Shown here one piece after another: positions 3 to 58,898 of a DNA stretch of 61,545 nt; within the stretch, counting starts at the first letter, position 1, and each line of letters opens with the position of its first letter. The DNA is from a virus. Its lineage: Duplodnaviria; Caudoviricetes. Location: the IMG/VR virus record IMGVR_UViG_3300040806_001491, positions 1 to 61,545 of that record, one strand, 5' to 3'. The position numbers and the translations under genes were made by a program. The notes under the pieces are model-generated. The model ran no database searches. It was not told the DNA's origin and saw only the letters and a list, made by a program, of their open reading frames with translations.

Positions 3-557
3 ATTGATCCTGCACAAACATTACGTTTTGAATTTTCAGATCCAATTGGTAGATCAGTTATTGATACACAAGGTATAACAACCGGTGCTATTGCAACTAA
101 CATTGCATTTAACACATCTAGAGGTACACCAACTGTTCCTAATGTTGTTAATCCTAGCGATTCACTAGCTCTTATTACAGCATCAGGATATGACGGTGCA
201 GCACAAACACTTAGCTCAACTATTGTAATGAGCGTAGACGGCAACAAATCAGTAAGTGTTGGCGATGTTCCTGGTAAGATTTCATTCTTACCAATCAATA
301 GCGGAGCACTAAGTGGAATTGGCGTAACTATTGATGCTGACAGCAAAATGACTGTCAATAGAGGCTATACTACTGTTGCTCAAGCAACTATGGACATCAA
401 CGGTACAATGCTACTAGAACCACAAACAAGTGCTCCAACAGCAGCAGCAGGTATGATTGCTGTAGCAGACGGAACTACTTGGGATCCTGCATCTAAAGGT
501 GGTGCGTTACCGTATCCAGTATTTTATGATGGAAGTGCTTGGAACGCACTATACTAA
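3..557 (+). CDS. 5'-truncated virion/tail-fibre-like protein (C-terminal part)
   Basis: The frame is open from base 3 (IDPAQTLRFEF...) to the stop at 557. G/T/A/S-rich, with an SRGT...GYDG segment and a C-terminal 'GMIAVADGTTWDP...PVFYDGSAW' module of the kind seen in phage fibre proteins. Confidence 0.6.
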   Translation: MDPAQTLRFEFSDPIGRSVIDTQGITTGAIATNIAFNTSRGTPTVPNVVNPSDSLALITASGYDGAAQTLSSTIVMSVDGNKSVSVGDVPGKISFLPINSGALSGIGVTIDADSKMTVNRGYTTVAQATMDINGTMLLEPQTSAPTAAAGMIAVADGTTWDPASKGGALPYPVFYDGSAWNALY

Positions 558-1240
558 TATAAAGAGTGCATACGCTGTATAAAGTCTGAAGAGTAATTAC
601 TCCTAAAACTTTCAAATACAAGTTTTTGTACATTAGATAATGGCATTGGTTGAGACACATCGATGCCATTATTCTTAAACAGAGCATAAGCACTTTCTAA
701 TCTGTCATCACTAAGATGACTTTCAATATCACTAAACAAAAGTGTTTCTTCTTTGTAATCATAACAAAAGAAGTAATTTATACATTTTAATTTTCCGTTT
801 ACAGGAAAATAACTACTAGGATGAAAACTAAATTTATAAAAACCTAGACTTTTATGTGCTTCTTCTATTTCTATGATTTGTTCTTGCCAGTCTGAAACTA
901 CAGAAGAATAATCATTACCTTCGCATCCTGCTTGATCCCACATATCAGAACCTTGTATTTCTAAGTATATTCTTTTGCTAACATGGTCTATTGCATCTAT
1001 TGTAGGAACGTGTTGCGGATAATGTTTTTGCATAAGTGTGAGATAATGAACTTCTCTAAGCCATTTTTCGTTCATCTTATTAGGATCTACAACCTTGTTC
1101 ATTCCTTTGTGATATTCAGTATCGTTGTGATACCACTGACAAAATATTTCTTTATCTTCGCTTATTAAGCTCGTGTAAATTAGATTGTTTCGACAAAGAC
1201 CTTTGCCCGGAACGTCATTGTAATAATAGTTAAAGTTCAT
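554..1240 (-). CDS. Protein-kinase-like fold protein with degenerate catalytic motifs
   Basis: Probable start is the ATG at 1240, 5 nt after TATAAGTA. Kinase-like order of elements: WLREVHYL (alphaC), VPTI...RIYLEIQG, HKSLGFYKFSFHPSS (catalytic-loop position), KLKCINYF (DFG position). Confidence 0.55.
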   Translation of the reverse strand: MNFNYYYNDVPGKGLCRNNLIYTSLISEDKEIFCQWYHNDTEYHKGMNKVVDPNKMNEKWLREVHYLTLMQKHYPQHVPTIDAIDHVSKRIYLEIQGSDMWDQAGCEGNDYSSVVSDWQEQIIEIEEAHKSLGFYKFSFHPSSYFPVNGKLKCINYFFCYDYKEETLLFSDIESHLSDDRLESAYALFKNNGIDVSQPMPLSNVQKLVFESFRSNYSSDFIQRMHSLY

Positions 1241-1245
1241 AAATA
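1238..1245 (+). promoter_or_regulatory. T4-type late promoter CATAAATA
   Basis: NATAAATA upstream of the GAGGA RBS and the ATG at 1268. Confidence 0.6.
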
Positions 1246-1253
1246 TACTTATA
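1246..1253 (-). promoter_or_regulatory. Late promoter variant TATAAGTA
   Basis: Lies 5 nt upstream of the ATG at 1240; the same octamer has the same spacing at 58899-58906. Confidence 0.5.
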
Positions 1254-1267
1254 TCAAGAGGATAAAC

Positions 1268-2086
1268 ATGATTAGAGGAATTGGTGGGAAACCATATATA
1301 GATCTTGACAAGTACTTGAACATTCCAAGTTTTCAAGCATTGCATCCAGAAATTTGTAAAGGCTTTGCAACAGCAAGACCATATGCTAAAGAAGGTACAT
1401 GGATGGAGCCTGGTTTTAATTTTGATGATTCTAGTTACATATTAAACTGGAAGCCTATATTTCAAACATTTAAAAAGTTTCAAAATCTACCAGATAACGA
1501 TCCTATTAAAGTTGAAGGAATGAAACTGTGGCCTAGTGACTTTAGAAACTTTGAAGAACGTAATATTTTTGTAAGATATTTAAAGGCTGCAATGGGTGCG
1601 CACGACCCTTACATATATTATTTTTTATGGGAAGATGCAAATAATATGAGCGATCGAGGAGAAATTGAGAGGCCTCCTACTCCGGAACAAGAACATTTTC
1701 CAAGTGTTGTAAAATGGGTTGAAAATTTAAAAACACAGGGTGTTATTGAACACATAGGTAGAGTTATATTCTTCTTTAGTGAGTCTAGTTCTAAACCATT
1801 TGAACATAGAGATATTGACCATAGTACACAAGGTGATGAAAACGGATATAGTAATCACAATATAGAATTTATACACATACGCCCTATGATGAAAAGAGGC
1901 TTTTATATATGGGATCCTGAAGCTAAAAAGAAAACATACGTTAACTCTCATTCGTGCTTCTTTAACGATCAAGACTGGCACGGTGGCGAATTTAGTATGG
2001 AGCAAGAATACGGACTACGTATAGATTGTAAATTTACTGATAAGTTTAAAAAACTACTTGGAATAGATCATCTTACACACTACTAG
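1268..2086 (+). CDS. 2OG-Fe(II) oxygenase (Asp/Asn beta-hydroxylase-like)
   Basis: HxD...H facial triad (FEHRD ... DWHGG) followed by a distal Arg (GLRID) in a beta-rich C-terminal half. Confidence 0.7.
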   Translation: MIRGIGGKPYIDLDKYLNIPSFQALHPEICKGFATARPYAKEGTWMEPGFNFDDSSYILNWKPIFQTFKKFQNLPDNDPIKVEGMKLWPSDFRNFEERNIFVRYLKAAMGAHDPYIYYFLWEDANNMSDRGEIERPPTPEQEHFPSVVKWVENLKTQGVIEHIGRVIFFFSESSSKPFEHRDIDHSTQGDENGYSNHNIEFIHIRPMMKRGFYIWDPEAKKKTYVNSHSCFFNDQDWHGGEFSMEQEYGLRIDCKFTDKFKKLLGIDHLTHY

Positions 2087-2756
2087 TAATACCTTCGGGT
2101 ATTACTTTTCTTAAACTAGACAGCATACTAGAGCATACTTCAAAAGATACAAATGTATCTCCTTTAAAAAAGTTATCTAGTTTACCTTGTTTATCTACAT
2201 AGTTGAGCCAGGGACTAATGTGTTTGTCAAATAAAAATCTAGAATTATATACTGTTCCTTGTAGTTTTACAAATACCCCGTTGTGTAAATTACCTCTTGT
2301 TAACAGTTCTCTAATTACTAGTTGTTTTCTTACTTTGTCACCGTGATTACTAGCTGTATGCAATCTTCCTGCATCCATGTACCACCATATACCGTCATAT
2401 ACTAAATTGTACATATCTAAATGTTCTAAGTCTATTAAAAAACTTTCTTCTCCAGATAAATTTATATGCCATCTATTATCAATATCAGAGTGTGACATAT
2501 AACAGTTGCCGGGTTCCATTTCTATAATACGAGCTTCGCCTTTTTGTGTAGGTAAAGAATTATATAGCTCTTCTAAAGGTGTATTTTTATAAATGTCTTT
2601 TAGTTTCCACGGATCGTAAAAGAAGTTTTCTGTTGGCTCGTTTAAAACAAGTTTATCACGTTCGCCTTTGACAACTTCAATGTCATTTGTTATAATATAA
2701 TTATTGCATTGATCTAAAAGATCTGTTGTAACTGTATATCCGGTATTTTCTAGCAT
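2073..2756 (-). CDS. 2OG-Fe(II) oxygenase (Asp/Asn beta-hydroxylase family)
   Basis: ARIIEMEPG..YMSHSD..RWHINL ... DAGRLHTASN..VRKQLV gives the HxD, H and R pattern of the family. Confidence 0.75.
   Translation of the reverse strand: MLENTGYTVTTDLLDQCNNYIITNDIEVVKGERDKLVLNEPTENFFYDPWKLKDIYKNTPLEELYNSLPTQKGEARIIEMEPGNCYMSHSDIDNRWHINLSGEESFLIDLEHLDMYNLVYDGIWWYMDAGRLHTASNHGDKVRKQLVIRELLTRGNLHNGVFVKLQGTVYNSRFLFDKHISPWLNYVDKQGKLDNFFKGDTFVSFEVCSSMLSSLRKVIPEGITSSV
2085..2110 (+). terminator. Intrinsic terminator with cUUCGg tetraloop
   Basis: Perfect 9-bp stem AGTAATACC-TTCG-GGTATTACT followed by a T-rich tract, directly at the stop of 1268..2086. Confidence 0.75.
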
Positions 2757-2760
2757 AAAG

Positions 2761-2804
2761 TATTTACCAGGTCTACGTTAAGTGCTATGTTTACTTGGTA
2801 AATA
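2761..2804. promoter_or_regulatory. Divergent pair of late promoters (GGTAAATA on each strand)
   Basis: TATTTACCA (2761-2769) and TGGTAAATA (2796-2804) form an inverted repeat; each TAAATA is 4-5 nt before an ATG (2756 minus, 2810 plus). Confidence 0.65.
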
Positions 2805-2809
2805 TTTGC

Positions 2810-3526
2810 ATGGACATAGATGGCGTTAACATTCCAATTAACCCTAACTGGAAAAGAATAGGTATTAGTATAAGTGGTGGTGCAGACAGTGCATTACTCA
2901 CATACTTAGTTGCAAGTAATACTAATGCACAAATTTATCTTACCAATCAAATACGATGTTGGAAAACTAGGCCTTGGCAAGAATATATAGCAGACAAAGT
3001 TATACAATGGCTAATGATGGAATTTGATAATATTGTTGGTGTTGAAAGAAATTTTATTCCGCCAGATCTTGAGTGGGGTCGTAAAGGTCAAAATATAGTA
3101 GACGAATATGGAAAACTAAAAAGCGGTAATCAAATTATACTTAGAAGTTATAATGAGTACATAGGACATAAGTATAATTTAGATGCTTGGTTTGCAGCTA
3201 TTAATAAAAATCCAGACATAGATATACCAGGTGCATTAGAAGATAGAAACGAAGGACATATACCTCCAATATTAGAACACATGGGCTGTACTATATGTCA
3301 TCCTTTTGTACATGTAATGAAAGACTGGATTATCAAACAATACTATAGATTAAAAATTACAGATCTGTTAGAACTTACTAGAAGCTGCGAAGGTGATGCT
3401 TTTGACTATCCAGAAGTATTTGGAGATTTAGATTATACTAATTATATACCAGGACAAAAAATTCCAGAATGCGGGAAATGTTTTTGGTGTAAAGAAAGGG
3501 AGTGGGCTCTTGCCAAAATCAAATAG
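2810..3526 (+). CDS. QueC-like PP-loop ATP pyrophosphatase (adenine nucleotide alpha-hydrolase)
   Basis: ISGGADS PP-loop; C-terminal Zn motif RSCEG...CGKCFWCKER. The ATG at 2810 is preferred over the track's start at 2795. Confidence 0.7.
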   Translation: MDIDGVNIPINPNWKRIGISISGGADSALLTYLVASNTNAQIYLTNQIRCWKTRPWQEYIADKVIQWLMMEFDNIVGVERNFIPPDLEWGRKGQNIVDEYGKLKSGNQIILRSYNEYIGHKYNLDAWFAAINKNPDIDIPGALEDRNEGHIPPILEHMGCTICHPFVHVMKDWIIKQYYRLKITDLLELTRSCEGDAFDYPEVFGDLDYTNYIPGQKIPECGKCFWCKEREWALAKIK

Positions 3527-4781
3527 TTGTACATTTTGTATGCATCCATTTACTGGATTAGCTACTAGAGAAGACGGTGCTATTAAAGTATGCTGCCGTA
3601 GCCAGCCAATTGGATGGATACAAAACGAAACTTTGGAAGAAGTTTGGAACGGTGATGCTATGCGTGAAGTGCGCAGACAAGTACTCAATAACGAGCGTCC
3701 AGATGTATGTAAGCCATGCTTTGACCTCGAAGATCAGGGGGTACAGAGCTTACGACAGCGTCATACAGCAGGTGTTATACCTGAAGCTAGGGTCAACTTA
3801 TACCCTGATGCATTAGACGCTTTAAACGACGATTACACAATGCCTTTTGAACTTCCTACTATGGAGATTAAACTTAACAATTTATGTAATTTAAGATGTC
3901 GTATGTGTAACCCACTAGATAGTACTAGTTGGAAAGATTGGGATCAAGTTACAGAGTTTTACAAAAAAGAAAATAACATTTTGATTCCAATTATTGACGA
4001 ACTTACTGATACACCAGGACAGTATATTGGTCCATTTGATAACAGCGATAATTGGTGGGAATCATTTGAAAAATTATTGCCCTATTTCCGTAGGGTAGAA
4101 TTTGCAGGCGGTGAGCCGTTAATGGATCCGTACCATTATAAAATACTTGATAGACTTGCAGAATACGGCGATAATATAGAATTAAAGTATGCTACAAACG
4201 GCACTACGCTAGGTATAAAAGGCGGACGTACTATACACGACTATTGGCCTAAGTTTAGAAGCATAGCTGTAAACGTAAGCATAGACGGTGTACATGACGT
4301 TTACGAGTACATTAGAGGCAACGGTAAGTTTAGCGAGATAGAAGAAAATGTAAAAGTATTCCAAAGTTTTCCTAACGTAACTAGAGTAGTGGGTGCATTT
4401 ACTGTACAAGCAAACAACATCATGCAAATTGATAAAGTAATTGATTACTTCATTAACAAAATGGGCATTGTGTTTTATTCACATCGTGTAAACTATCCAA
4501 TGGTATTAAGCGCACAAGTATTGCCGCCTCAACTAAAAGCAAAAGTTGTTGATAGGCTAGAACAAATGAAAACCGAAATACTTGAATATCCTTTGGTACA
4601 ACAACATAAACTGTTAGAACAAATTACCTTGCAACAGATACAAGATAACATTAATTTTCTAGAATCAAAATGTATGTATAGCTCGCACTGGAAAGACTGT
4701 GTAGAGTTTAATAAGCGTTTAGATAAAACTAGAGGACAAGATTTTCTATCAGCAAATCCGGAGTTTGCAGATTATGTATAA
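3510..4781 (+). CDS. Radical SAM enzyme with N-terminal twitch/SPASM-like Cys cluster
   Basis: CNLRCRMC (CxxxCxxC), AGGEP; N-terminal FCMHPF..VCC..CKPC. Confidence 0.9.
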   Translation: MPKSNSCTFCMHPFTGLATREDGAIKVCCRSQPIGWIQNETLEEVWNGDAMREVRRQVLNNERPDVCKPCFDLEDQGVQSLRQRHTAGVIPEARVNLYPDALDALNDDYTMPFELPTMEIKLNNLCNLRCRMCNPLDSTSWKDWDQVTEFYKKENNILIPIIDELTDTPGQYIGPFDNSDNWWESFEKLLPYFRRVEFAGGEPLMDPYHYKILDRLAEYGDNIELKYATNGTTLGIKGGRTIHDYWPKFRSIAVNVSIDGVHDVYEYIRGNGKFSEIEENVKVFQSFPNVTRVVGAFTVQANNIMQIDKVIDYFINKMGIVFYSHRVNYPMVLSAQVLPPQLKAKVVDRLEQMKTEILEYPLVQQHKLLEQITLQQIQDNINFLESKCMYSSHWKDCVEFNKRLDKTRGQDFLSANPEFADYV

Positions 4782-5673
4782 AGTAACAAGCAAATGGCCA
4801 CATCAAGATAGTGTAAAAATAGAATGGAATATAGGCAAAAGATGCAATCTTGATTGTGCATACTGTCCGTCATTTATACATGATAACTTTAGCCCTCATA
4901 CAGACATAGATGTTTTTAAAAAAGCATTAGCTGAATTATCAAAAATGAATAAACCTTTGAGAATTAGTTTTACAGGCGGCGAGCCATGCGTACACCCTAA
5001 TATTATAGATATAGTCGAGTCGACTAGAGAAGTAGCAGATTGGATTAATATTACTACTAACGGTACACTTCCATATAAGTTATATGGTAGATTACCTGTC
5101 GATCATTATGTTTTTAGTCTACACTTTGATAATGAAGTTGTAGAAAAAACAGTAAACAATATATTGTACTGGAGTCAGTTAAATGATATGGAAAGAAATA
5201 TTCCTTATCAGGTTAATCTAATGGCTCATCATCAGTATATGGATCGTGTAAAAGAAAGCTGTTGTGTATTAGATGGACATAGCGTTCCTTATGTTATTCG
5301 TAGAATAAGATGGACCGAAGGCGATCACGATTGGTTTGACGACATGAGATATGACTCAAAGGATTTAGAATGGATCCTAGACCATAATGCTACAGTTAAA
5401 GCAAATTGTTTAATAGATGATACTGAAGAAATGCATGCCAACGATATTATTAAACATCATAAAAATCAATTTAAAGGTTGGAAATGTAACGCAGGTATTG
5501 AAAGTTTAATGATTAATTGGGACGGTGAAGTACATCGAGCTACGTGCAGAGTGGGTGGGAGTTTAGGTAACATCTATAGTGGCACATTTGAAATTCCTAC
5601 CGAACCAATTACATGTACACGTAATTGGTGTACATGTGCTGCGGATATACCGTTAACTAAAGTTTCCACTTAG
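4774..5673 (+). CDS. Radical SAM enzyme with C-terminal twitch-like cluster
   Basis: CNLDCAYC, TGGEP, TTNG; C-terminal CNAG...ATC...CTRNWCTCAAD. The ATG at 4774 overlaps the end of the upstream gene. Confidence 0.9.
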   Translation: MYKVTSKWPHQDSVKIEWNIGKRCNLDCAYCPSFIHDNFSPHTDIDVFKKALAELSKMNKPLRISFTGGEPCVHPNIIDIVESTREVADWINITTNGTLPYKLYGRLPVDHYVFSLHFDNEVVEKTVNNILYWSQLNDMERNIPYQVNLMAHHQYMDRVKESCCVLDGHSVPYVIRRIRWTEGDHDWFDDMRYDSKDLEWILDHNATVKANCLIDDTEEMHANDIIKHHKNQFKGWKCNAGIESLMINWDGEVHRATCRVGGSLGNIYSGTFEIPTEPITCTRNWCTCAADIPLTKVST

Positions 5674-6655
5674 TAATATGTGTGTCGGGTTGACATCCGC
5701 ATGTTTTATAAGGACAAGTAAATCTGTCAATCTTACTTCTAACATTTTTTAATTTTTCTGTAAATCCTTCTTCAAAAATATTAAAATCTTCTGTTTTAAA
5801 GATAGCAACATTACAACTACCTGTAAGTGAGCCGTCAAAATTTATGCACAAATTTTCATATAACACATTACACTTCCATCCTTGAAAGTGGTTTTCATCA
5901 TTGTTTATATAATCACCTGAACGCTTTGGTAATACACTATCGTTATCGTATAATGCAATACTATCGTGTATCCTAAAGAGATGCATATTTTTTAATAAAA
6001 AATCACTTTCAGGAAGTCTTTTTAATCCACTATTCATATATTCTATCATTTCGGGAGTATAACTTAAATTGTCTTTGCCTTCACATTGTATTACAGGTTT
6101 TGCTTCTATAAACCAAGGGTTTTTACTCGTTTTAAATTTTTCTATAATGTCTTTACATTTTTCAAAATACTCTGCATCCATTAATACTAGAGCTGTAACA
6201 GACACGCCTTGTTCATAAAGATAATCACAAACTTCTATGGTATGATCAATGTCAGCAAATTCATGATGTACACTTAGTGTAACTTTATCAAGATACTTAC
6301 TATGGTTTTCCCACCACCTTAGTGTTCTACTACCGTTTGTTGTTACTGTAAATTCTATGTCATAGACTTTAGATAATCTGTCACAAAATTCTCCAAAGTA
6401 AGGCCATAGTGTAGGTTCGCCTCCTCCTGCAAGATTTAGTTCTACTTTGTTTTTATTATAATGTACACGATAAAACTCAAATAAAGCACTAAAGTTTTTT
6501 ACAATAGTATCTATATTTTTTGAGTATCTGTGTACTCCGTCTTTGCTACCCGGAAAACAATATGTACAATTAAAGTTACATATATCCGTTGGAAAAAATC
6601 TAATGTCTAAAACATCTTTAGGAACAAGACTTACAATTTTTTTTAATTGTGTCAT
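5657..6655 (-). CDS. Radical SAM enzyme with C-terminal twitch-like cluster
   Basis: CNFNCTYC, GGGEPT, TTNGS; C-terminal CNV...GSC...CPYKTCGCQPD. Confidence 0.9.
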   Translation of the reverse strand: MTQLKKIVSLVPKDVLDIRFFPTDICNFNCTYCFPGSKDGVHRYSKNIDTIVKNFSALFEFYRVHYNKNKVELNLAGGGEPTLWPYFGEFCDRLSKVYDIEFTVTTNGSRTLRWWENHSKYLDKVTLSVHHEFADIDHTIEVCDYLYEQGVSVTALVLMDAEYFEKCKDIIEKFKTSKNPWFIEAKPVIQCEGKDNLSYTPEMIEYMNSGLKRLPESDFLLKNMHLFRIHDSIALYDNDSVLPKRSGDYINNDENHFQGWKCNVLYENLCINFDGSLTGSCNVAIFKTEDFNIFEEGFTEKLKNVRSKIDRFTCPYKTCGCQPDTHITKWKL

Positions 6656-8070: not shown

Positions 8071-8669
8071 TAGTGATGTTTCCCTACTATCATGTATCTT
8101 TCATATTTTGGTGTTTCAAATGTTTCTGCAAAATAAGGAGCAACATCTGACATTTTAATAAAGTCAATTATATCTGTTGCACATCTTACATGCTCTTCAT
8201 GCTCAAAGTAATTATTGCTTTGTATGACTACTGTTGCAAAATGCGGTAATTTTTTTAACCATTTATTATATTGTTCTTGTGTAAGATGTTCACAGCTAGT
8301 GTTTATAACTATATCGGCTTTATAATCATAGTCACACATATCTGCTGTAACGGCTTCAAATCTTCCTTCAATTTCTTGACGTTTGTTTATTGTACGTGCT
8401 ATTTCCTCGCATGTAGGATCTATATCAACACTAACAATAGACTCTATATTAATTTTACTATTAAACAATAGGCTTGCTAGCACACCATTCCAGCCGCCGT
8501 GTATAACAATCTTATTCTTTGACGGCAAAGCAAATGTTTCTAAAGTTTCTACTAACCAAACTTTACTCCTTATTTGTCCTTTCCAAAAACTTTCAAGAGT
8601 ACGGAATTTATCGTCACTATTGCGTATTGCATCCATCCAAAAAAGTACATCTTCTATCTCAACTTTCAT
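8070..8669 (-). CDS. Class I SAM-dependent methyltransferase
   Basis: IVIHGGWNG (motif I-like), VSVDID (motif II), ADM, DIVINTSCEH. Confidence 0.7.
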   Translation of the reverse strand: MKVEIEDVLFWMDAIRNSDDKFRTLESFWKGQIRSKVWLVETLETFALPSKNKIVIHGGWNGVLASLLFNSKINIESIVSVDIDPTCEEIARTINKRQEIEGRFEAVTADMCDYDYKADIVINTSCEHLTQEQYNKWLKKLPHFATVVIQSNNYFEHEEHVRCATDIIDFIKMSDVAPYFAETFETPKYERYMIVGKHH

Positions 8670-10730: not shown

Positions 10731-12309
10731 TTTTAAATTGCTCCCTAAGCCAATCGAAGTCGTTAATTAATCTTAAACGATCTGGCTTATCGAAATTATC
10801 GTAACCAAACTGACGGCCACTACGAGCGCCACTAGTAGCAAATTTTCCAAAACGAGCATTGACACTTTCTTCGCACCAAGTGTTAAGCCTTTCTTCTGTT
10901 TCTGCATTGTCTTTTCTGTCAATAGTACCACTTGCTAATTTTACACATTCTCTAAATGCTGCTCTCCATGTAGTAAATGGATCAACATCAAATTTTGTAA
11001 TATTAGATACTTGTGCAATACTTTTAAAACTTTTACTAATACTAGTTGTCATGTCAACTGTATTGTCTGGTAAATTACGTGTTAGGTGTGTAGGTAATAA
11101 TTTTACACCTCCATATCCGTATTGCAAATTATTTACAGGATTTTTACTACGCCAAACATGAACAGTATTCTTATCCCAATCTTCTACTTCTAGATAGAAG
11201 TTAAAGTCTTTTACAATTTCAGCATCGCCGTCTACTACCCAAAACATATCTGTTTCTGCAAGATGTGCTGCGGCACGATGTGCGTTTTGTATACCTTTAA
11301 TTCCGTGCATACGTTTGGCCCTTGGAAAACGTTTTTTTAGTTCTTCAAAGTTTTTATCTGCTTCTGGTTCGTCATATGTAATCATTACAATATCATAAAC
11401 GTGAGATTGTATTAGAGAACGTCCTGGTTTATCTATCCTACTAGGATTAATATAAACTTCTTTAAAGAAAGCACTCTGTTCGGCATCCATAGGAGTTACA
11501 GATATTGGTAAATCTAGTTCGTTACGTAAAATCTCGCCGTAATGTTTTGCACCTTCAAATGGGTCATTGTGCTTAATTGTATCAAAGAATGTATTAAGCC
11601 AATCAAAGTCTCTTACATTAACAAAGTCCCAATCAGTTAACATTGTCATATTAAGACCTTGTCTTGCTCCGTAGATTGACCAAATACCGTTTTCTACATC
11701 TGTACCAACATTACACCATATATAAAGCCAATGTAAAGTTCTCCACGGATTGCTTAAAAGTTTTTCTTTGCTAATACGTCTACCATTAGATAGACCCATC
11801 TTAACGCCTTCTCGAAATCCTGCTCTCCAAGCCTGACGTTCGCTTGCGTTATTATACACATCTGAAAAACATTCGTTCATTTGTTTGTAATCTAGATCCC
11901 AACAAAAGTCTACTTGTGCTGCTTCGTTATTAGGATCAGCATTTTCATGTGTACGCATGTTTTGTACAATGTGTTTAGGCCAACATTTAACTCCGCCATT
12001 GCCGTACTGTAAATGATTGATTACATTTTTGCCGCACCAACTGATTACAGTATTGTCGCTTACCATATCTTTAGGTATGCTCCAATTTAATAAACTTGGA
12101 CGTATTCTATTGTCGCCGTCAACTGTAACAAATCTGTCTGTGTCAGCAATATCTGCACAGGCTTTGTGTGCTGCATCCGAACCTTTTACACCATGAACAC
12201 GCTTGGCCCACGGTATCTTAGTTAATAGATCTGCATAATTTTGTTCACAGTTGGGTTCGTCGTAAGACAAAAATATTACATCGAAATCATTTATTCGTAG
12301 TTCGCTCAT
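10714..12309 (-). CDS. Glycosyltransferase with two tandem GT-A-like domains
   Basis: Internal duplication: SYDEP..HGVKG..AH..VDGD..YGNGGVK..WRAGFREGVK and TYDEP..HGIKG..AH..VDGD..YGYGGVK..WRAAFRECVK; DxD motif in both halves. Confidence 0.75.
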   Translation of the reverse strand: MSELRINDFDVIFLSYDEPNCEQNYADLLTKIPWAKRVHGVKGSDAAHKACADIADTDRFVTVDGDNRIRPSLLNWSIPKDMVSDNTVISWCGKNVINHLQYGNGGVKCWPKHIVQNMRTHENADPNNEAAQVDFCWDLDYKQMNECFSDVYNNASERQAWRAGFREGVKMGLSNGRRISKEKLLSNPWRTLHWLYIWCNVGTDVENGIWSIYGARQGLNMTMLTDWDFVNVRDFDWLNTFFDTIKHNDPFEGAKHYGEILRNELDLPISVTPMDAEQSAFFKEVYINPSRIDKPGRSLIQSHVYDIVMITYDEPEADKNFEELKKRFPRAKRMHGIKGIQNAHRAAAHLAETDMFWVVDGDAEIVKDFNFYLEVEDWDKNTVHVWRSKNPVNNLQYGYGGVKLLPTHLTRNLPDNTVDMTTSISKSFKSIAQVSNITKFDVDPFTTWRAAFRECVKLASGTIDRKDNAETEERLNTWCEESVNARFGKFATSGARSGRQFGYDNFDKPDRLRLINDFDWLREQFKNDTNT

Positions 12310-12315
12310 ACTGTT

Positions 12316-12344
12316 ATTATACCTTCTAAAAAGGATTTTGTCAA
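12316..12344 (-). promoter_or_regulatory. Consensus sigma70 (early-type) promoter
   Basis: TTGACA-N17-TATAAT on the minus strand, 6 nt before the ATG at 12309. Confidence 0.85.
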
Positions 12345-12351
12345 TAATTAA

Positions 12352-13758
12352 TTAATTGGCGCCGGCTTCTAAATACAGGATAACTGAAATAGTATCAACT
12401 AGAGTAGCAGAATCTGCAACCCTAACTGAAACCGTTATATTAGCTTGCTCAAAACTAGCTGAGGAATATTCAAAAATTTTCCAATTATTAGCTGATGGAC
12501 GCATCCACGTATTTTCAGCGTTTGTTATAGGATTACCATCTGCATCTACTCCATCATCGCCGGGTGATATTATCATGTTCGATGACACTACTTGCCATTT
12601 CCATTCGTAATCTGTACGTGTTGGTGTAGGAGAGCCATCTGGTAACCAATTAGACCATTGTTGAGATGAAGTATTGCTTATAACTTCTCCATAAGCAATA
12701 AGTCTAGGCGCAAGATTTCCACCTTCATATGTATGTGTAACTTGAGCATAACTACTATATGATGGATTAATTGTCGTATCAAAGAAAGTTATATTGTTTT
12801 TGGCAAAGACAGGTGTTGCAGCATTTGATGCCGATCCTTGACTTGAAACTACCGGATTATATGATACAGGTTGTAGATCATTTGGTAGTCTACTAGGATA
12901 TTTTATGTTTACCGAAAATGCAACATTTGTATCAACATCTTCGTCAATGTAGTCATCTGGATTACCACTATCTAAATCTTGTAAGGATAATCGTGTAACA
13001 AACTTACCAGTACCGGTAAAGTCATCTACTTTTACTTGTATGTTACCAACATTATTACTGTATGTTGAATTTCCTGTAGAGCTTGCTACATTTACAAATG
13101 TAGTATTAGAATAGTCTGTTGTTGTGTACGTATAACTTAGATTATCTATCATGTTTGACCAATCAAGATCTTTGTCTGAAGTTGCACCACTACTAGATGC
13201 TGCTGCAATTATACCACCTAATGCCCTACTAAAGTGTTGTCTATGTACAGCAGGTGTTGCTACGGCTGTTGCGCCTGCCGAATTGGTAGTATAAGTATAT
13301 CCTCCAGGAAATCCCCAAATTTGATCTATTTCAAGTCTTCCGTTCCAAGCAAGCTCATACGAAGCTGATGGAGAGTTAAGTATTGCAAAATCAAAATTTG
13401 TAAGTTGTCCAGACCTAAGTATAGCTGTATCAAGTGCTGATTCTAGTGTATTGTAATCGGCATCGTCAATTTCGTCAGTACTTGCTGCACTAAACCCAGG
13501 ATCAAAAACACTTCCTCCAAAATAAGTATTAAATGTTGTTGCATAATCAAATTCACCAGTTGTAGAATAATACAAAAAGTCCATTATGTCTTCTGCTAGA
13601 TCATTCCAATCACTAGCACTAATAACTGAGGTACTTGATTTTGTAGTTGTCCCAGATCGTAGTTGCTGACCCATATAACTTGCATAATTAGAAACTAATC
13701 TATCTACAAGATTGTTAAACTGGGTATTGAGAATATTGTCGCCTTCACTAACCGCCAT
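12352..13758 (-). CDS. Putative virion fibre/baseplate-associated protein (paralog family A)
   Basis: S/T/G/N-rich; shares WNDL..DI, GFPGGY.Y..N..G and YPS.L motifs with 18191..19537, and a looser pattern with 14206..15711. Confidence 0.55.
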   Translation of the reverse strand: MAVSEGDNILNTQFNNLVDRLVSNYASYMGQQLRSGTTTKSSTSVISASDWNDLAEDIMDFLYYSTTGEFDYATTFNTYFGGSVFDPGFSAASTDEIDDADYNTLESALDTAILRSGQLTNFDFAILNSPSASYELAWNGRLEIDQIWGFPGGYTYTTNSAGATAVATPAVHRQHFSRALGGIIAAASSSGATSDKDLDWSNMIDNLSYTYTTTDYSNTTFVNVASSTGNSTYSNNVGNIQVKVDDFTGTGKFVTRLSLQDLDSGNPDDYIDEDVDTNVAFSVNIKYPSRLPNDLQPVSYNPVVSSQGSASNAATPVFAKNNITFFDTTINPSYSSYAQVTHTYEGGNLAPRLIAYGEVISNTSSQQWSNWLPDGSPTPTRTDYEWKWQVVSSNMIISPGDDGVDADGNPITNAENTWMRPSANNWKIFEYSSASFEQANITVSVRVADSATLVDTISVILYLEAGAN

Positions 13759-14206
13759 TGTTTATAAACCTTAGTCTAGTATGTGTATCAGTTGCTTTAT
13801 ATTGTTTAATATTATGTGTTTGTGATAAACTTTTTATTATACCGTTATGCATGGCGCTATCTGACAATACAAGTATATCTACAAAAAGACTTTTGTTGCG
13901 AACTTCTTGTATAGATAAAGCTATATGATCTGGATTGTTAAACCAATCTTGATTTCCTTGAGAATCTTGACCAAACAAGCAAAACACAAAAGAAGGTACA
14001 CCGTTATATATTTTGCAAGCACTCATTGTTACAGGAACGTCATTATCTTTAGTTAATGTAACAATGTCGCTAGTTTTAAATATACTTTCTGCAAGGAATT
14101 TGTCTACCGAATATCCTAGATTTTTATGTAATAATCTATTACACTGATTCCATAGTGTATCAAATATTTCTTGATCAAAATTAATTATGCTACTAGTTAT
14201 TGTCAT
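13748..14206 (-). CDS. Hypothetical protein
   Basis: 152-aa ORF overlapping both neighbours; no motif recognised. Confidence 0.5.
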   Translation of the reverse strand: MTITSSIINFDQEIFDTLWNQCNRLLHKNLGYSVDKFLAESIFKTSDIVTLTKDNDVPVTMSACKIYNGVPSFVFCLFGQDSQGNQDWFNNPDHIALSIQEVRNKSLFVDILVLSDSAMHNGIIKSLSQTHNIKQYKATDTHTRLRFINNGG

Positions 14207-15711
14207 TATATAAACTCTATTTCAAAATTTCCGCCGTTAAAATTAAAAGAGCTTGGGTAAATTGGCAAGAATTGGCTATTACTGTCTTGCCAAGTAAATT
14301 GTATAAATGCCCAAGTAGCTGCCGATCCGTACTGATATAGTAGTCCGTTTGAAGAAACCGTTTGATTTGTAATTGAAGAAGTTGTAGCAAAAGACCGGTC
14401 TAATGTTTTTGATGTTCCGTTATCTAAATCTCTTACAATCAAAGATGTCCATGTTCCTTGAGATGGTACAGTATTATTAGGATTACCTATATATAAGTAA
14501 GGCAATCCGCCCGTTCCATCTGATTGAGCTATAACGTTACTTATTGCAGCAATATAATTACCGCTCCAGGCAGAATCAAATTTTCCTGCATCTACATCAT
14601 CGATAGTTCCAACAATATTAAGTGTCACATGATTATAACCTGATAGATAAAATTTTCCATCGTAGACAATAGAAGAGCTACCTTGGGAAACAGTGCTAGT
14701 GGTAGGGCCGCTGCCACCGCCTGTAGTTGTTGTGGTAGCACTAATCGAAGGCTTCCATTTGTTAACCAAATGTCCTGGATAGTAGACTCTCACACTCAAG
14801 TTAAAATTAGTAGTAACAGCTTCGTCGTATGCTGCTTCAGTATAATCTGTACCTGAGCCGTCACCATCAGAGCCATCTATATAGTGCAAGGCATAGTGTA
14901 TTACATTTGAACTGTCTCTTCTACATATTAATCTTAATACATTTCCTGAATATGCTGTGCTCGTTTCTGTTTGTAGGGTCGAATAGTTACTCCAATTATC
15001 AGACAAAGTAATACTTGTTATAGGCCAAGGATTATGTATATAACTTATGTTGTTTAACATACTTTTAACATCTTCGTCTTTTGATGTTCCGTTACTACCA
15101 GTACCTGAAGCTGTTATAACAATACGGCCGCCACATTGTGTCATAAATCGTATCTTGTTAGTATTATTACCAGTATAGCTAGCTGTTGCACCATTTATAT
15201 TAGTTGCTACAGTGCCATCAGCATCTGTACCACTCCAGTCTACACCCATTTCACAAAAGATTTTTGCGTTATCATCATCTGCGGCTACATTTGTAGTAGA
15301 CGATGCGTTACCTGTAATACTACTAGTAAAGTTTGAATAGCTTGGCTGTCCAGCTTGTTTGGCAAGATCAATTCCATTCTGTAATTGATTTATATCTTGA
15401 TATCTAATTTCTGATCCAAAAACTTCTGGACTGTTATAGCTATCATTGCCGTTATTAAAATTAGAGTTTGAATTAAAAATTAAATTGTAACATTCTGATA
15501 ATGTAAATGATCCTACTTGTGTTGCAAAATAAAAATCTCTAGTGTCAAGTGCAAGTTTTTCAAGATCAAAGTCATTTACAAAAGTAGATACCCTATTATT
15601 TGCGCCTCGGCAAGGCTGACCGTATACAGTAGAATAACTATCTATAATTTGTTGTATCAAACTATCAATATGATCTACTCTAATTTCATCGTTTTGTGCT
15701 ACCGATACCAT
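14206..15711 (-). CDS. Putative virion fibre protein (paralog family A) with Thr/Gly linker and distinct C-terminal domain
   Basis: GGRIVITASG, RVYYPGHL, linker ATTTTTGGGSGPTTST; preceded by a late promoter and an AGGAG RBS. Confidence 0.55.
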   Translation of the reverse strand: MVSVAQNDEIRVDHIDSLIQQIIDSYSTVYGQPCRGANNRVSTFVNDFDLEKLALDTRDFYFATQVGSFTLSECYNLIFNSNSNFNNGNDSYNSPEVFGSEIRYQDINQLQNGIDLAKQAGQPSYSNFTSSITGNASSTTNVAADDDNAKIFCEMGVDWSGTDADGTVATNINGATASYTGNNTNKIRFMTQCGGRIVITASGTGSNGTSKDEDVKSMLNNISYIHNPWPITSITLSDNWSNYSTLQTETSTAYSGNVLRLICRRDSSNVIHYALHYIDGSDGDGSGTDYTEAAYDEAVTTNFNLSVRVYYPGHLVNKWKPSISATTTTTGGGSGPTTSTVSQGSSSIVYDGKFYLSGYNHVTLNIVGTIDDVDAGKFDSAWSGNYIAAISNVIAQSDGTGGLPYLYIGNPNNTVPSQGTWTSLIVRDLDNGTSKTLDRSFATTSSITNQTVSSNGLLYQYGSAATWAFIQFTWQDSNSQFLPIYPSSFNFNGGNFEIEFI

Positions 15712-15714
15712 TTT

Positions 15715-16224
15715 TTACTCCTGTGTAGTATATTTATTTGATTTTAAAGTAAAGGTTTTATCATACGGAGCAACAAAAAATCTCTTGTTTTGATAAGAAC
15801 GTTTATGAACTAGTTTATCTTTTGTAAAATTAAGAGTATCTATAGCAAGGCCGGGATCTTTTTCTGTTACGTAAACAACAATAGTTCCATTAAATTCAAA
15901 ATGTGTTTTCATTGATACAGTGTCTTCTTCAACTGTTAACTCTACTTGAGCATTTGTTGATTGAACAATTTCTATTAGATTAGATTTAATATGTATTGAA
16001 TTGCTCTTTTCAATCTTTTCTAATCTAGGTTTTTTCGTTATAGGATTTTCTACAACAACTACATCTTTTGGAATTTTCCGCCAGGCAGAAAATATCTCTA
16101 TTTGATCTGCAGGACTATAATCGTCAATTGTTAGATAACGGCTTGTAGATCCTTTGTAAGGTGCATCTGGTTGTACTTCTTGTATTTGTCCTTCTTTGTT
16201 ATAATGTATGTACCAAACTACCAT
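15715..16224 (-). CDS. Hypothetical protein
   Basis: 169-aa ORF, last gene of the GT8-like operon; GGAG RBS. Confidence 0.55.
   Translation of the reverse strand: MVVWYIHYNKEGQIQEVQPDAPYKGSTSRYLTIDDYSPADQIEIFSAWRKIPKDVVVVENPITKKPRLEKIEKSNSIHIKSNLIEIVQSTNAQVELTVEEDTVSMKTHFEFNGTIVVYVTEKDPGLAIDTLNFTKDKLVHKRSYQNKRFFVAPYDKTFTLKSNKYTTQE
15731..15738 (-). promoter_or_regulatory. Late promoter AATAAATA
   Basis: Upstream of the AGGAG RBS and the ATG at 15711. Confidence 0.55.
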
Positions 16225-17023
16225 AATAGTACTCCATTTTTAATTCATCGCAAAAGTGCTTTTCTGTATAATGAAAAACACCTGTTTGTTTATAACCGCC
16301 TACATATAAATCTAAATCTTCTGTTAAGTAGTGTGTAGCAATTTCAGTCCAAGGTTTGTTATAATTGGGCCAATCTTGACATTTAGATTTCATATGCACA
16401 AACGAAATCAAATCGTGTGAACTAGTAATTTGTTCTGTTATACCTAGCATTTCACTAGCTATAGCTGTACTTACATCAATACTAGCCCATGGTTGTTTTT
16501 TCCATAGTTTTATGTCATGCCAATTTGTCATTACCCACTTTAATTGATCAAAGAATTTTTTTGATAACTCTGTTTTTTTAAAATAGTATATTGCACTATA
16601 GAAATCTGGAAGATAATTAGCATCAAATGTAGCTCTATAGTATCTACTAGTTACATTATTATTTCTAAATGTTTTAACATTTGTACAAAAGTAAAGCTCA
16701 TAGTTAGATAAAAAATTCCACTTAATGTCAAAGTTATCTAATATCAACATATCTGTATCAAATACTACAGTTTCGTCGTAGGGAGTAAGGTCGTATGCTG
16801 TAACTCTATTTTCTATTTTCCAATTACTGTTTATAGCTAGATCATTTTCTATAGGTATAATTTTATCAAAAAACTTTTGATATTTTTTAGGTACTTTATC
16901 ATTTGTTACAATACTAACTAAACTACCAGGTGTAGATGAATGTATGCTCATTGCTAATAAACATGCTTGATTTACATAATTATACTCGGAGTTTTGCGCA
17001 AAAAATAAAAATCCTTTACTCAT
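16199..17023 (-). CDS. GT-A fold (GT8-like) glycosyltransferase
   Basis: KGFLFFA..Y..A..LA.SI, VTND, YDLTPYDETVVFDTDML (DxD), FVHMK. The ATG at 17023 is an ATGA overlap with the upstream stop. Confidence 0.7.
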   Translation of the reverse strand: MSKGFLFFAQNSEYNYVNQACLLAMSIHSSTPGSLVSIVTNDKVPKKYQKFFDKIIPIENDLAINSNWKIENRVTAYDLTPYDETVVFDTDMLILDNFDIKWNFLSNYELYFCTNVKTFRNNNVTSRYYRATFDANYLPDFYSAIYYFKKTELSKKFFDQLKWVMTNWHDIKLWKKQPWASIDVSTAIASEMLGITEQITSSHDLISFVHMKSKCQDWPNYNKPWTEIATHYLTEDLDLYVGGYKQTGVFHYTEKHFCDELKMEYYYGSLVHTL

Positions 17024-17811
17024 AGATACTCCTCTAACCAATATTTGTTCATAACATGGATATCACAATTTTCTAATCTTACTGGTATTTTAATTCTCTT
17101 GGCAGATGTTATTGCTTTAAATTCTGTGTCAGATAGCAAAATTGGGGTGTCTTTATCTAAACTGTAGTACATTTTTCCTGGTAGTATATCTGCAAAATTA
17201 TTATCTAACAGATTTAACGCAATACTAAAAAGATAGTCATTTCTAAACATGTCATTTTTAAATTTATACTGATCTACATAATATCTATAATTGTTTTGTA
17301 TAACATTAAGTAAATCAAAAAATTGTTTTACTTCTTTAGTTTTTTGAAAACAAAACACTGTAGCCCAGTAGAACATTGGTCCAATTGAACTAGTATAAGT
17401 AAATTCGTCCCTATCTCTATCAGGATGAATATCTACAGCATCTTTATAAATTTGAAACTGTCTATCTAATTCAAAAGAGTGTTTTAGTGTGTCTGAACAT
17501 AACATATAATCAACATCCATTACCAGCGTTGTATCAAACGGTGTTAGATCGTATGCTTTAGATCTTGCTGTATTTCGAAATGTAAGGGTATTAGTTGTTT
17601 TAGAGCCGTTAGAATATATTCTTTTGCTAAAGGTATTCTTTTCTTGATAATTAATTACTTTTACAAAACTTTTAGATTTTATGTCACTGTCTGTTACAAG
17701 TGCAACAGGAACATCTAAATATTTTTTTATTCTTCTAGCACATTCTTCTGCCTGTTTTATATAATTAATTTGTTCATTAGCAAAAGCAAATAAAAGTACG
17801 CCTTTATCCAT
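17020..17811 (-). CDS. GT-A fold (GT8-like) glycosyltransferase
   Basis: KGVLLFA, VALVTD, YDLTPFDTTLVMDVDY (DxD), FRND, IHVMNK; paralog of the downstream gene. Confidence 0.7.
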   Translation of the reverse strand: MDKGVLLFAFANEQINYIKQAEECARRIKKYLDVPVALVTDSDIKSKSFVKVINYQEKNTFSKRIYSNGSKTTNTLTFRNTARSKAYDLTPFDTTLVMDVDYMLCSDTLKHSFELDRQFQIYKDAVDIHPDRDRDEFTYTSSIGPMFYWATVFCFQKTKEVKQFFDLLNVIQNNYRYYVDQYKFKNDMFRNDYLFSIALNLLDNNFADILPGKMYYSLDKDTPILLSDTEFKAITSAKRIKIPVRLENCDIHVMNKYWLEEYL

Positions 17812-18133
17812 TAACCAGCCCTTGTACAGAACGATTAGACTTTAATTCTTCATATGCATCAAAGTAAGATTGTAAAGCATTATTTCTTGCTTTTACAAGT
17901 GTTGCTAAAAACTCATCTATATTAGAAATACGAATAGGAGTACCTTTGTCATCGATCTCTATAGTACTAAGGGTATTATGTTCAATAGTATTAAGATAAC
18001 TTATACGAGACGTTGATGCAGAAAATTCTCCTCCATTATAAAATATAATTAAATCAGTTTCAAATTTTTCTTTAAGTAATCTTTTTTGATTAGAGAAAGT
18101 TTTTGCATAATTTGCAAAGTCATAAACGTCCAT
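17804..18133 (-). CDS. Hypothetical protein
   Basis: 109-aa ORF with a GGAG RBS downstream of a sigma70 promoter. Confidence 0.6.
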   Translation of the reverse strand: MDVYDFANYAKTFSNQKRLLKEKFETDLIIFYNGGEFSASTSRISYLNTIEHNTLSTIEIDDKGTPIRISNIDEFLATLVKARNNALQSYFDAYEELKSNRSVQGLVNG

Positions 18134-18156: not shown

Positions 18157-18185
18157 ATTATAACTTATCTATTAATAAAAGTCAA
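18157..18185 (-). promoter_or_regulatory. Sigma70 (early-type) promoter
   Basis: TTGACT-N17-TATAAT on the minus strand. Confidence 0.8.
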
Positions 18186-22519: not shown

Positions 22520-22543
22520 TCATATACCCCTGTAACGATATAG

Positions 22544-22551
22544 TATTTATC
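22544..22551 (-). promoter_or_regulatory. Late promoter GATAAATA
   Basis: In the intergenic gap upstream of the AGGGG RBS and the ATG at 22519. Confidence 0.6.
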
Positions 22552-22559
22552 GCCTGCCC

Positions 22560-27490: not shown

Positions 27491-27512
27491 GTTTGTTTCC
27501 ACCTGTCATATG

Positions 27513-58892: not shown

Positions 58893-58898
58893 GCATTT

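Follow-up and report, generated by a model that had tools for sequence, protein, structure and literature searches.

We analysed the virus record IMGVR_UViG_3300040806_001491 of IMG/VR in its entirety, a stretch of 61,545 bases (hereafter the window) from an uncultured estuarine giant phage, and found that an island of enzyme genes at positions 554-18133 encodes a real, conserved pathway that is most likely linked to the host-recognition apparatus of the phage. The record is rated about 17% complete, so the genome should measure about 360 kb; contigs of its lineage with lengths of 354-375 kb are on record. The island encodes six radical S-adenosylmethionine (SAM) enzymes, a PP-loop ATPase, two Fe(II)/2-oxoglutarate (Fe/2OG) oxygenases, three glycosyltransferase (GT)-like genes, a methyltransferase-like protein and a protein of kinase fold. 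The GT-A folds among these proteins, the UDP-sugar dehydrogenases and epimerase/dehydratases encoded in the islands of relatives and a radical SAM enzyme resembling BlsE point most probably to a chemistry of nucleotide-sugar tailoring with glycosyl transfer. We tentatively propose that the product decorates the fibre-like paralogs (FLPs) and tail fibres of the phage itself. A sequence-only reading of this DNA had described 14 enzyme-like genes as a dedicated pathway for an unusual glycan or post-translational decoration. The count is reached with 554-1345 as the fourteenth gene, on a protein-kinase-like profile match, and the dedicated pathway with glycan chemistry is supported by the features just named together with synteny with the fibre module.

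Enzymes of the island

The fourteen enzyme-like genes are as follows (coordinates, strand, description and basis).

554-1345, minus strand: protein-kinase-like fold protein (profile of 8 orthologs against the PDB)
1268-2086, plus strand: Fe(II)/2-oxoglutarate oxygenase of no named family (model fold, invariant HxD...H)
2073-2756, minus strand: Asp/Asn beta-hydroxylase-type cupin Fe/2OG oxygenase (profile against Cpz10)
2795-3526, plus strand: QueC-like PP-loop ATPase with a C-terminal Cys cluster (SGGxDS, weak QueC match)
3510-4781, plus strand: N_Twi radical SAM enzyme (NF033640, 335.3 bits against a cut-off of 170)
4765-5673, plus strand: radical SAM enzyme with a Cys-rich C-terminal (twitch-like) tail (Pfam, motif)
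5657-6655, minus strand: radical SAM enzyme with a Cys-rich C-terminal tail (Pfam, NCBIfam scan)
6652-8070, minus strand: N_Twi radical SAM enzyme, the island's most conserved gene (NF033640, 396.2 bits)
8070-8669, minus strand: methyltransferase-like protein, a weak call (Methyltransf_25, 21.2 bits against a cut-off of 27)
8666-9718, minus strand: radical SAM enzyme with a Cys-rich C-terminal tail (Pfam, NCBIfam scan)
9660-10730, minus strand: BlsE-related radical SAM enzyme with a Cys-rich C-terminal tail (PDB 7VOB, E 1.1e-5)
10714-12309, minus strand: two tandem GT-A-fold domains with DxD, virus-only family (model, alignment)
16199-17041, minus strand: GT8-like DxD protein (paralog alignment)
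17020-17811, minus strand: GT8-like DxD protein (paralog alignment, atlas lead)

All six radical SAM genes of the sequence-only reading hold up: the open reading frames (ORFs) exceed the Pfam Radical_SAM (PF04055) cut-off of 29.5 with 34.6-53.6 bits, a result reproduced in a six-frame scan, and CxxxCxxC is present in each of the six translations. Two of them, 3510-4781 and 6652-8070, match the N_Twi_rSAM model NF033640 over positions 2-397 of 398 and carry a SPASM-like half-domain N-terminal to the core (Pfam SPASM at 10-70 and 31-109, Radical_SAM at 123-286 and 162-317, respectively). We found no characterised NF033640 member in the databases and literature searched, so the family name gives no reaction, and a PDB search with the 6652-8070 protein returned no solved relative at E 0.01. 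The remaining four enzymes score 26-33 bits on NF033640 or are unlisted, and are thus non-members. They match named radical SAM models far under the cut-offs, the best named match of 5657-6655 being prokaryotic viperin (57.8 bits against a cut-off of 180), and peptide-maturase models of the type found in ribosomally synthesised and post-translationally modified peptide (RiPP) pathways reach at best 20-48 bits against cut-offs of 300-850 (for example, 47.8 against 400). The sole solved relative of 9660-10730 is BlsE, a cytosylglucuronate decarboxylase (7VOB, E 1.1e-5). Because this protein scores 33.4 bits on the BlsE equivalog model TIGR04466, whose cut-off is 400, we regard it as a relative of BlsE and not as its ortholog.

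The GT-like genes encode four domains, as had been claimed, namely the GT-A tandem and the GT8-like pair, the GT8 label being soft. The two domains of 10714-12309 are paralogs whose DxD residues (D65, D67) are invariant over 29 domain sequences. A model of the C-terminal domain (predicted local distance difference test score, pLDDT, 89.7) adopts the GT-A/nucleotide-diphospho-sugar-transferase fold and aligns with B4GALNT1 at Z 11.4 (root-mean-square deviation 3.0 over 142 residues). At Z of at least 8 the model matches 48 chains, in which GT-A transferases are mixed with sugar nucleotidyltransferases, and Foldseek relates it to polypeptide GalNAc-transferases, RmlT, TarS/TarP and SunS at E of about 1e-4. 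PDB sequence and profile searches for the family gave nothing useful, and a language-model atlas places it among virus-only clusters without a Pfam family, with a lead of 0.86 to a GT2-bearing cluster. The proteins 16199-17041 and 17020-17811 are likewise paralogs, with an invariant DxD and C-terminal His, and their single family pointer is a language-model lead of 0.96 to GT8/Nucleotid_trans clusters. Pfam at E 0.01, PF00535 and PF01501 included, assigned no family to any of the three GT-like genes. As judged from their sequences, the GT-A, GT8-like, FLP and 1268-type proteins belong to no curated family.

Both oxygenases of the sequence-only reading are supported, one by profile and the other by predicted fold, with HxD...H in each. 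The protein 2073-2756 alone had no Pfam match at E 0.01. Its profile, built from 15 orthologs, matches a solved Fe/2OG beta-hydroxylase, structure 7V4F (E 4.8e-15), identified as Cpz10 in the accessible part of PMC9814697, and the iron triad (H89, D91, H133) is invariant; a separate gene cluster in relatives matches PF05118 (Asp/Asn beta-hydroxylase) directly. The AlphaFold model of 1268-2086 is of medium confidence (pLDDT 76.5), and all 50 fold matches listed for it are Fe/2OG oxygenases, with Z up to 9.8; its triad of H180, D182 and H238 is also invariant. A terminator-like hairpin of 9 pairs followed by a T-run lies at 2085-2106, the meeting point of these two convergent genes.

The PP-loop enzyme was likewise correctly recognised, its SGGxDS motif (S27 G28 G29 A30 D31 S32) being invariant in 23 orthologs, and its resemblance to QueC is weak. 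It scores 16.8 bits on Pfam QueC (PF06508, cut-off 22) and covers only profile positions 177-209 of 210. It matches a PHROG family labelled QueC-like at E 1.8e-6, has no NCBIfam QueC match, and PF06508 is carried by 7 of its 120 listed homologs. PDB sequence and profile searches with this protein and with 1268-2086 gave nothing useful. We infer that the substrate of this QueC-like ATPase is a carboxylate, for instance a uronic acid, which the enzyme would activate. The claimed methyltransferase fared less well. The protein at 8070-8669 stays under the Methyltransf_25 cut-off, and a profile of 14 orthologs found no solved relative in the PDB at E 1 or better; what stands is the sub-cut-off match, together with a conserved GGWxG and acidic-loop pattern. 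A profile of the kinase-fold protein at 554-1345 matches TTK kinase (E 2.6e-5). Its true start is probably Met36, at about position 1240, since orthologs start near residue 38. None of the island proteins looks membrane-embedded, as no 19-residue stretch exceeds 1.39 on the Kyte-Doolittle scale, and all would thus be soluble.

Conserved gene order and accessory genes

A scan with the N_Twi enzyme 6652-8070 yielded 218 confirmed relatives in viral contigs, and we examined the loci of the best 80 of these 218, which share 82-92% identity with it. For the GT8-like gene 17020-17811, 421 viral relatives were found with a query alignment of 3 rows, an alignment of 8 rows being too diverse and a single-sequence pattern search of viral contigs confirming none, and 80 of the 421 loci were examined. 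The radical SAM, methyltransferase-like, PP-loop, GT-A and both oxygenase genes recur in a common order in the 80 N_Twi loci, and those that are fully flanked hold 5-12 ORFs with CxxxCxxC. An ortholog of the methyltransferase-like gene is present in 79 of 80 loci, and the QueC-like gene, for which there are 2737 protein clusters of relatives, always adjoins one of the two N_Twi genes in the 80 loci. Median identity to the window is highest for the N_Twi enzymes 6652-8070 (86%) and 3510-4781 (84%), followed by the radical SAM enzyme 8666-9718 (72%), radical SAM enzyme 4765-5673 and the methyltransferase-like gene (60%), the PP-loop protein (55%) and the radical SAM enzymes 9660-10730 and 5657-6655 (35-37%). 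For comparison, baseplate gp6 of the window and of G001, a relative with a record of 159 kb, are 54% identical, below both N_Twi enzymes.

The genes that accompany the enzymes are the following.

3-557, plus strand: partial ORF of 184 aa at the window's left end, 21% Ser+Thr (fibre-like by composition only)
12352-13758, minus strand: FLP inserted in the island, 22% Ser+Thr (paralogy)
13748-14206, minus strand: 152-aa ORF inserted between FLP paralogs
14206-15711, minus strand: FLP, 23% Ser+Thr, with its own ATAAATA at 15731-15737 (paralogy)
15715-16224, minus strand: small protein between the GT8-like pair and GT-A (conserved position)
17804-18133, minus strand: conserved opening gene (109 aa) of the transferase operon (homologs in 79/80 loci and RsoM2USA)
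18191-19537, minus strand: FLP at a conserved spot between the fibres and the transferase operon (paralogy, synteny)
19553-26872, minus strand: three tail-fibre genes with a common N-terminal domain (PHROG tail-fibre matches)

Together with the transferases, these genes form a backbone on one strand that runs from two to three fibre N-domain genes through one to three FLP genes, a 17804-like gene, two GT8-like genes, a small gene and a GT-A gene to an N_Twi radical SAM gene. An FLP gene lies no more than two ORFs upstream of the GT8-like gene in 71 of the 72 loci having enough upstream DNA, and fibre N-domain genes lie upstream in all 63 loci that could be scored (63/63). The GT8-like pair is found in 77/79 loci, the fourth gene is GT-A in 62/62 and the fifth is an N_Twi radical SAM gene in 61/62. 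The small gene appears as an unlabelled ORF in relatives' locus maps, and its positional counterparts in G001, the locus L062 and RsoM2USA are 16-25% identical to it. The window departs from the backbone in having two extra FLP genes and the 152-aa ORF, for which Pfam, PHROG and NCBIfam gave no family, between the small gene and GT-A, and in the fusion of its two GT-A domains.

Outside these loci, a minimal module is carried by RsoM2USA, a cultured Ralstonia soil jumbo phage of 344 kb. Its ORFs 347-354 encode, at 25-45% identity, a methyltransferase-like protein, GT-A, an N_Twi radical SAM enzyme, a second GT-A, the small gene, two GT8-like proteins and a 17804-like protein, in that order. The adjacent ORF355 is a fibre N-domain fused to an FLP core (E 1e-12 and 2e-7 to two FLPs). 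According to the accessible text of the paper on this phage, ORFs 356, 359 and 361 were detected in virions by mass spectrometry (PMC8504454); the paper does not mention the module, and the word 'radical' is absent from it (PMC8504454). The conserved co-occurrence and synteny on which the sequence-only reading had staked its case are therefore found over the 80 loci and in RsoM2USA.

The three FLPs (12352-13758, 14206-15711 and 18191-19537) are 22-26% identical to one another and contain 17-23% Ser+Thr. A PHROG search found one member each at E 0.0032 and 0.089 and hence no convincing family, a word-based search returned only 6 close homologs, and a PDB search for the family gave nothing useful. 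The earlier description of the island as flanked and interrupted by fibre-like genes applies to the two interrupting FLP genes and to the right flank, and is doubtful at the left, where 3-557 has no match in Pfam, PHROG or the phage database. Metagenome contigs from three studies bridge the insertion between the small gene and GT-A, which is therefore not an assembly error. Contig joints at 12003>16260 and 12210>17720, which may derive from relatives without the FLP insertion, have short sides of 30 and 23 letters and we draw no conclusion from them.

We also surveyed the accessory genes of the N_Twi loci by clustering their ORFs of at least 90 residues and scanning representatives of the 59 commonest clusters. 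Genes for UDP-glucose/GDP-mannose dehydrogenases occur in 29 of the 80 loci and genes for NAD-dependent epimerase/dehydratases of the short-chain dehydrogenase/reductase (SDR) type in 22; one or the other is present in 35 of 80 loci and in 10 of the 17 that are fully flanked. Further accessory genes encode more Fe/2OG oxygenases, a PF05118 hydroxylase and additional radical SAM enzymes. Among the 59 commonest clusters we found no polyprenyl-phosphate transferase, flippase, polymerase, DNA transferase or precursor-peptide-like gene.

Full-length N_Twi enzymes also occur in bacteria, where we inspected four neighbourhoods. In Lysobacterales the gene is accompanied by five PhyH oxygenase genes and GT4, GT2 and GT87 genes, and a Bdellovibrionales chromosome (L087 5329-14450) holds five tandem N_Twi-like paralogs next to phosphoglucomutase, the tandem being broken up by a transposase fragment and a helix-turn-helix gene. 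The neighbourhoods in Halobacteriovorax and Flavobacteriales had no clear theme. The N_Twi family appears to be common to giant phages and predatory bacteria. The KVP40-like Vibrio phage K566 has only N_Twi paralogs in common with the island. Four N_Twi-like paralogs lie in a non-structural region of this phage, with a gene annotated as PagP, a lipid A acyltransferase, about 0.6 kb beyond the cluster and NAMPT nearby (L115 8705-17492 and 18718-19167).

The right half of the window is a T4-type structural and replication region. Baseplate wedge genes resembling gp6, gp25 and gp5 stand there beside genes for a late sigma factor of gp55-like type and for nuclease subunits of gp46/gp47 type. The gp6-like protein is nearest to those of the Rak2/Atu_ph07/SCTP-2 jumbo myoviruses, at only 33-37% identity, and none of 50,697 phage records matched the island when compared as nucleotides. 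Near-identical contigs come from 19 DNA runs in 12 estuarine and marine studies, with no RNA run listed. Between the fibre genes and gp6 lies a single ORF of 5,289 residues (27516-43385, minus strand), which has a counterpart in G001 at 29-44% identity; the giant virion protein ORF361 of RsoM2USA occupies the same relative position. An ORF at 58828-59361 (plus strand), between the gp46-like gene and the next gene, matches PHROG NAD synthetase (E 1.5e-39) and homing endonuclease (E 1e-14) families and may be a mobile endonuclease insertion.

Promoters, acceptor and alternative readings

The window contains 9 copies of the motif ATAAATA, whereas shuffled sequence has 48.7 +/- 7.4, an approximately fivefold depletion. 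Of these 9, 8 are found 6-33 nt ahead of a correctly oriented start codon (sites at 1239, 15731, 22544, 27513, 46910, 47390, 54958 and 59855). The genes preceded in this way are gp6, gp25, 54096-54938, 26876-27502, the fibre gene 19553-22519, 59894-60526, the FLP gene 14206-15711 and the oxygenase gene 1268-2086. Given this placement and the presence of a gp55-like sigma factor, we take ATAAATA to be a late promoter of the T4 type whose first base is relaxed. As the motif we rejected the complete T4 late consensus, TATAAATA, which has 2 sites in the window against 12 expected. The promoter-like sites of the island itself are as follows.

1239-1245, plus strand: ATAAATA late-type motif, 23 nt before the start of 1268-2086
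2668-2696, plus strand: sigma-70-type promoter matching perfectly (TTGACA-17-TATAAT, extended by TG), ahead of the operon 2795>3510>4765
12316-12344, minus strand: perfect sigma-70-type promoter before the operon 10714>9660>8666>8070>6652>5657
18157-18185, minus strand: sigma-70-type promoter, 11/12, before 17804-18133 (transferase operon)

Sigma-70-type sites also precede gp55 and gp47. The bare number of sigma-70-like sites of at least 11/12 in the window (7, shuffle mean 4.6) is not above chance, so the case for these promoters is carried by their position before operon-first genes and by their conservation. In relatives, at least 11/12 is reached by 31 of 46 unique regions upstream of the 17804-like gene, where the -10 element and the start codon are 12-29 nt apart, and by 17 of 64 unique regions upstream of the GT-A gene. 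TAAATA is present in 9 of the 13 regions scoring below 10/12 before the 17804-like gene and in 1 of the 31 high scorers. The two promoter types thus look mutually exclusive across relatives at this gene, and by their sequences a minority of relatives has switched the transferase operon to a late-type site. ATAAATA precedes 38 of 118 fibre genes and 18 of 76 FLP genes in relatives, and none of their GT8-like, GT-A, N_Twi or 17804-like genes. These patterns make the enzymes look early, transcribed by host RNA polymerase, and the fibres late, in this phage and most of its relatives. The perfect site before 10714-12309 stops 6 nt before the ATG and overlaps the sole Shine-Dalgarno-like bases, so this transcript would be nearly leaderless, or the gene would also be read through from upstream.

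From these observations we consider it quite possible that the island is a sugar-tailoring and transfer pathway that decorates the FLP and fibre proteins of the phage. In such a pathway, which would be cytoplasmic throughout, the host would supply the nucleotide sugars, which many relatives would additionally oxidise or epimerise with the UDP-sugar dehydrogenases and SDR enzymes of their islands. The six radical SAM enzymes, the two Fe/2OG oxygenases, the kinase-fold protein, the QueC-like carboxylate-activating ATPase and the probable methyltransferase would edit these sugars, and the four GT-A-type domains would transfer them. Early synthesis from host-RNA-polymerase promoters would have the iron-sulfur enzymes and the sugar pool ready beforehand, and the product would be O-linked onto the late-made, Ser/Thr-rich FLP and fibre proteins of the host-recognition apparatus. 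We favour this acceptor because of the fixed adjacency of the FLP genes, the RsoM2USA fusion, the Ser/Thr-rich composition of the FLPs and the solubility of the transferases.

Several observations weigh against this proposal. The glycosylation of FLP and fibre proteins, its product and its acceptor are all predictions from the genes, which we hold tentatively. Because all 80 loci belong to one phage lineage, the synteny counts are largely inheritance, and RsoM2USA is the sole independent case. The enzyme operons have early host-type promoters and the fibre and FLP genes the late motif; a function before virions are made therefore fits at least as well as virion decoration. In G001 the far (left) side of the island abuts a replication module and not fibres, and the N_Twi paralogs of phage K566 sit away from fibres, near a PagP-like gene. 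The FLP family is without a known fold or function, so its place in the virion comes from the RsoM2USA fusion only, and the methyltransferase and GT8 assignments, made by sequence comparison, are weak. The substrates of the GT8-like, kinase-fold and LpxO-type hydroxylase families also include lipopolysaccharide (LPS). The sequence-only reading had favoured virion fibres as the target because of the island's location. The argument from location stands, with FLP genes directly upstream in nearly all loci; against fibres as the acceptor count the early promoters and, in G001, the replication genes on the far side.

A rather unlikely alternative is that the island remodels a host-cell glycan. The target would be LPS, in its core or its O-chain, or capsule precursors on the inner side of the membrane. 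Such editing would block superinfection or keep progeny off debris, and its linkage to fibres would reflect co-evolution between the binding and the editing of receptors. In its favour, each of the three enzyme operons is preceded by an early sigma-70-type promoter, as is the transferase operon in most relatives (31/46 unique upstream regions), and the island has GT8-like, kinase-fold and Asp/Asn-hydroxylase-type proteins. WaaJ and WaaP, which are enzymes of the LPS core, and LpxO, which hydroxylates lipid A, are members of these families. The PagP-annotated gene about 0.6 kb beyond the K566 radical SAM cluster also fits, and O-chain modification was favoured for the glycosyltransferases of the pelagimyophage cluster in the available part of that study (Zaragoza-Solas et al. 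2020, PMC7029224). On the other hand, the window contains no flippase, polymerase, ligase, polyprenyl-phosphate transferase or membrane protein, nor do the relatives' 59 commonest clusters, and a host glycan would need neither the FLP/fibre adjacency (71/72) nor the FLP-fibre fusion of RsoM2USA. We also know of no tested precedent for surface editing by strictly lytic T4-like phages. It is distinctly unlikely that the island, or its core of QueC-like ATPase and two N_Twi enzymes, acts on a 7-deazapurine or another nucleobase or nucleotide and yields a hypermodified, possibly glycosylated base in DNA or tRNA. We searched five relatives' records for deazapurine genes (G001, G002, G006, G007 and G008, 42-75% complete). 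FolE (GTP cyclohydrolase I) and a QueE-like radical SAM enzyme are encoded in 4 of the 5 and QueD in 2, and neither a canonical QueC nor another QueC-like gene was found at E 0.001 or better, which leaves the island protein as the only candidate for the missing 7-deazaguanine step. The QueC-like gene always stands beside an N_Twi gene, the conservation of the N_Twi pair (median 84-86%) would suit a universal small-molecule substrate, and the fold neighbours of 1268-2086 include AlkB and TET-type enzymes, tied with many others. T4 DNA-modification genes have early promoters resembling those of the island. Against this, the five relatives have no match to the TGT/DpdA family or to the thymidylate-synthase family (hydroxymethylase), both of which controls detected in known genomes; a Tet_JBP search also gave no match and was uninformative, as its controls went undetected as well. 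The genes for FolE and QueE form a pair that is set among other genes at a distance of 13-20 kb from the island (in G001, L082 1846-3652), the QueC-like protein is under the Pfam QueC cut-off, and the minimal module of RsoM2USA has no QueC-like match. A combined scheme, in which the core and the GT-A transferases turn 7-carboxy-7-deazaguanine, supplied by FolE/QueD/QueE of the phage itself, into a glycosylated, radical-edited 7-deazapurine, is improbable. If true, the product would be a hypermodified base or nucleoside of a new class, synthesised early for DNA or tRNA or as an anchor for fibre decoration.

The nearest characterised relatives of several island enzymes come from nucleoside-antibiotic pathways (BlsE, Cpz10, and the fold neighbours PolD, PasI and orthosomycin oxygenases), and tailoring enzymes are many and transferases few, so that the island might conceivably make a free small molecule. 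Such a product, for example a sugar compound of nucleoside- or aminoglycoside-like type, would be directed at the host or at competitors. We consider this very improbable: the similarities are at superfamily level and tied with protein hydroxylases, neither a Pfam scan of the window nor the relatives' commonest clusters showed an exporter or resistance gene, and four GT-A-type domains and the fixed linkage to fibres would go unexplained. The SPASM/twitch domains and the many weak matches to peptide maturase models could also point to maturation of RiPP type, in which a protein or peptide of the phage would be cross-linked or epimerised, a reading we hold to be extremely remote. Every maturase-model match is far under its cut-off, the accessory genes of relatives are nucleotide-sugar enzymes, and there is no room for a precursor gene, since the genes abut or overlap and the sole gaps, of 38-57 bp, bear promoters.

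Significance and relation to known systems

A widespread giant-phage lineage of marine, estuarine and lake waters devotes at least 18 kb to this island, whose N_Twi enzymes exceed the baseplate in conservation and whose enzyme families had no tested reaction in what we searched. A product placed on fibres would amount to a novel type of virion modification, with a bearing on host recognition and on phage-host arms races at sea; one that modifies a base or the host surface would represent a chemistry of defence evasion or exclusion that is likewise new. In both cases the island may provide several radical SAM reactions on sugars not seen before, and the minimal module in a cultured phage together with the soluble proteins makes the question testable.

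The closest likeness by layout is the host recognition cluster of pelagimyophages and cyanomyophages, which, in the available part of its description, is a variable island that places fibre genes, glycosyltransferases and radical SAM cassettes in the structural region of marine T4-like phages (Zaragoza-Solas et al. 2020, PMC7029224). Our island belongs to a phage of Rak2/Atu_ph07 type with a genome of about 360 kb and its backbone is fixed, whereas theirs is described there as non-syntenic; that part of the text tests no function and describes no N_Twi family, FLP family or promoters. By description, the T4-like marine genome TARA_ERS488813_N000010 is similarly unusual in its wealth of radical SAM genes, of which it has 12 (Nishimura et al. 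2017, PMC5332604). In the accessible part of that paper it appears only in a discussion of iron-sulfur metabolism, without pathway, synteny or function. We found no functional study of such an island in the literature searched, most subscription journals lying outside it; the cassettes have been noted there and never tested. The sequence-only reading knew of no characterised phage pathway of this composition, which is in accord with that same literature.

BlsE offers a parallel at the level of chemistry, as it is a twitch-type radical SAM enzyme acting on a uronic-acid sugar and the islands of relatives carry UDP-sugar dehydrogenases that would make uronic acids, although 9660-10730 falls well short of its equivalog model (33.4 bits against 400). 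Virus-encoded glycosylation of virions occurs on the capsid of chlorovirus PBCV-1, the fibrils of mimivirus and the capsid and tail of mycobacteriophages. In our proposal, read here from the genes, soluble viral GT-A and sugar-tailoring enzymes would likewise decorate the virus's own surface proteins in the cytoplasm, and the PBCV-1 transferase 2P6W is a fold neighbour of our GT-A model (Z 8.7). To our knowledge, none of these three systems uses arrays of radical SAM enzymes. The island resembles the sugar-tailoring parts of nucleoside and aminoglycoside antibiotic clusters, joined to a viral glycosylation module.

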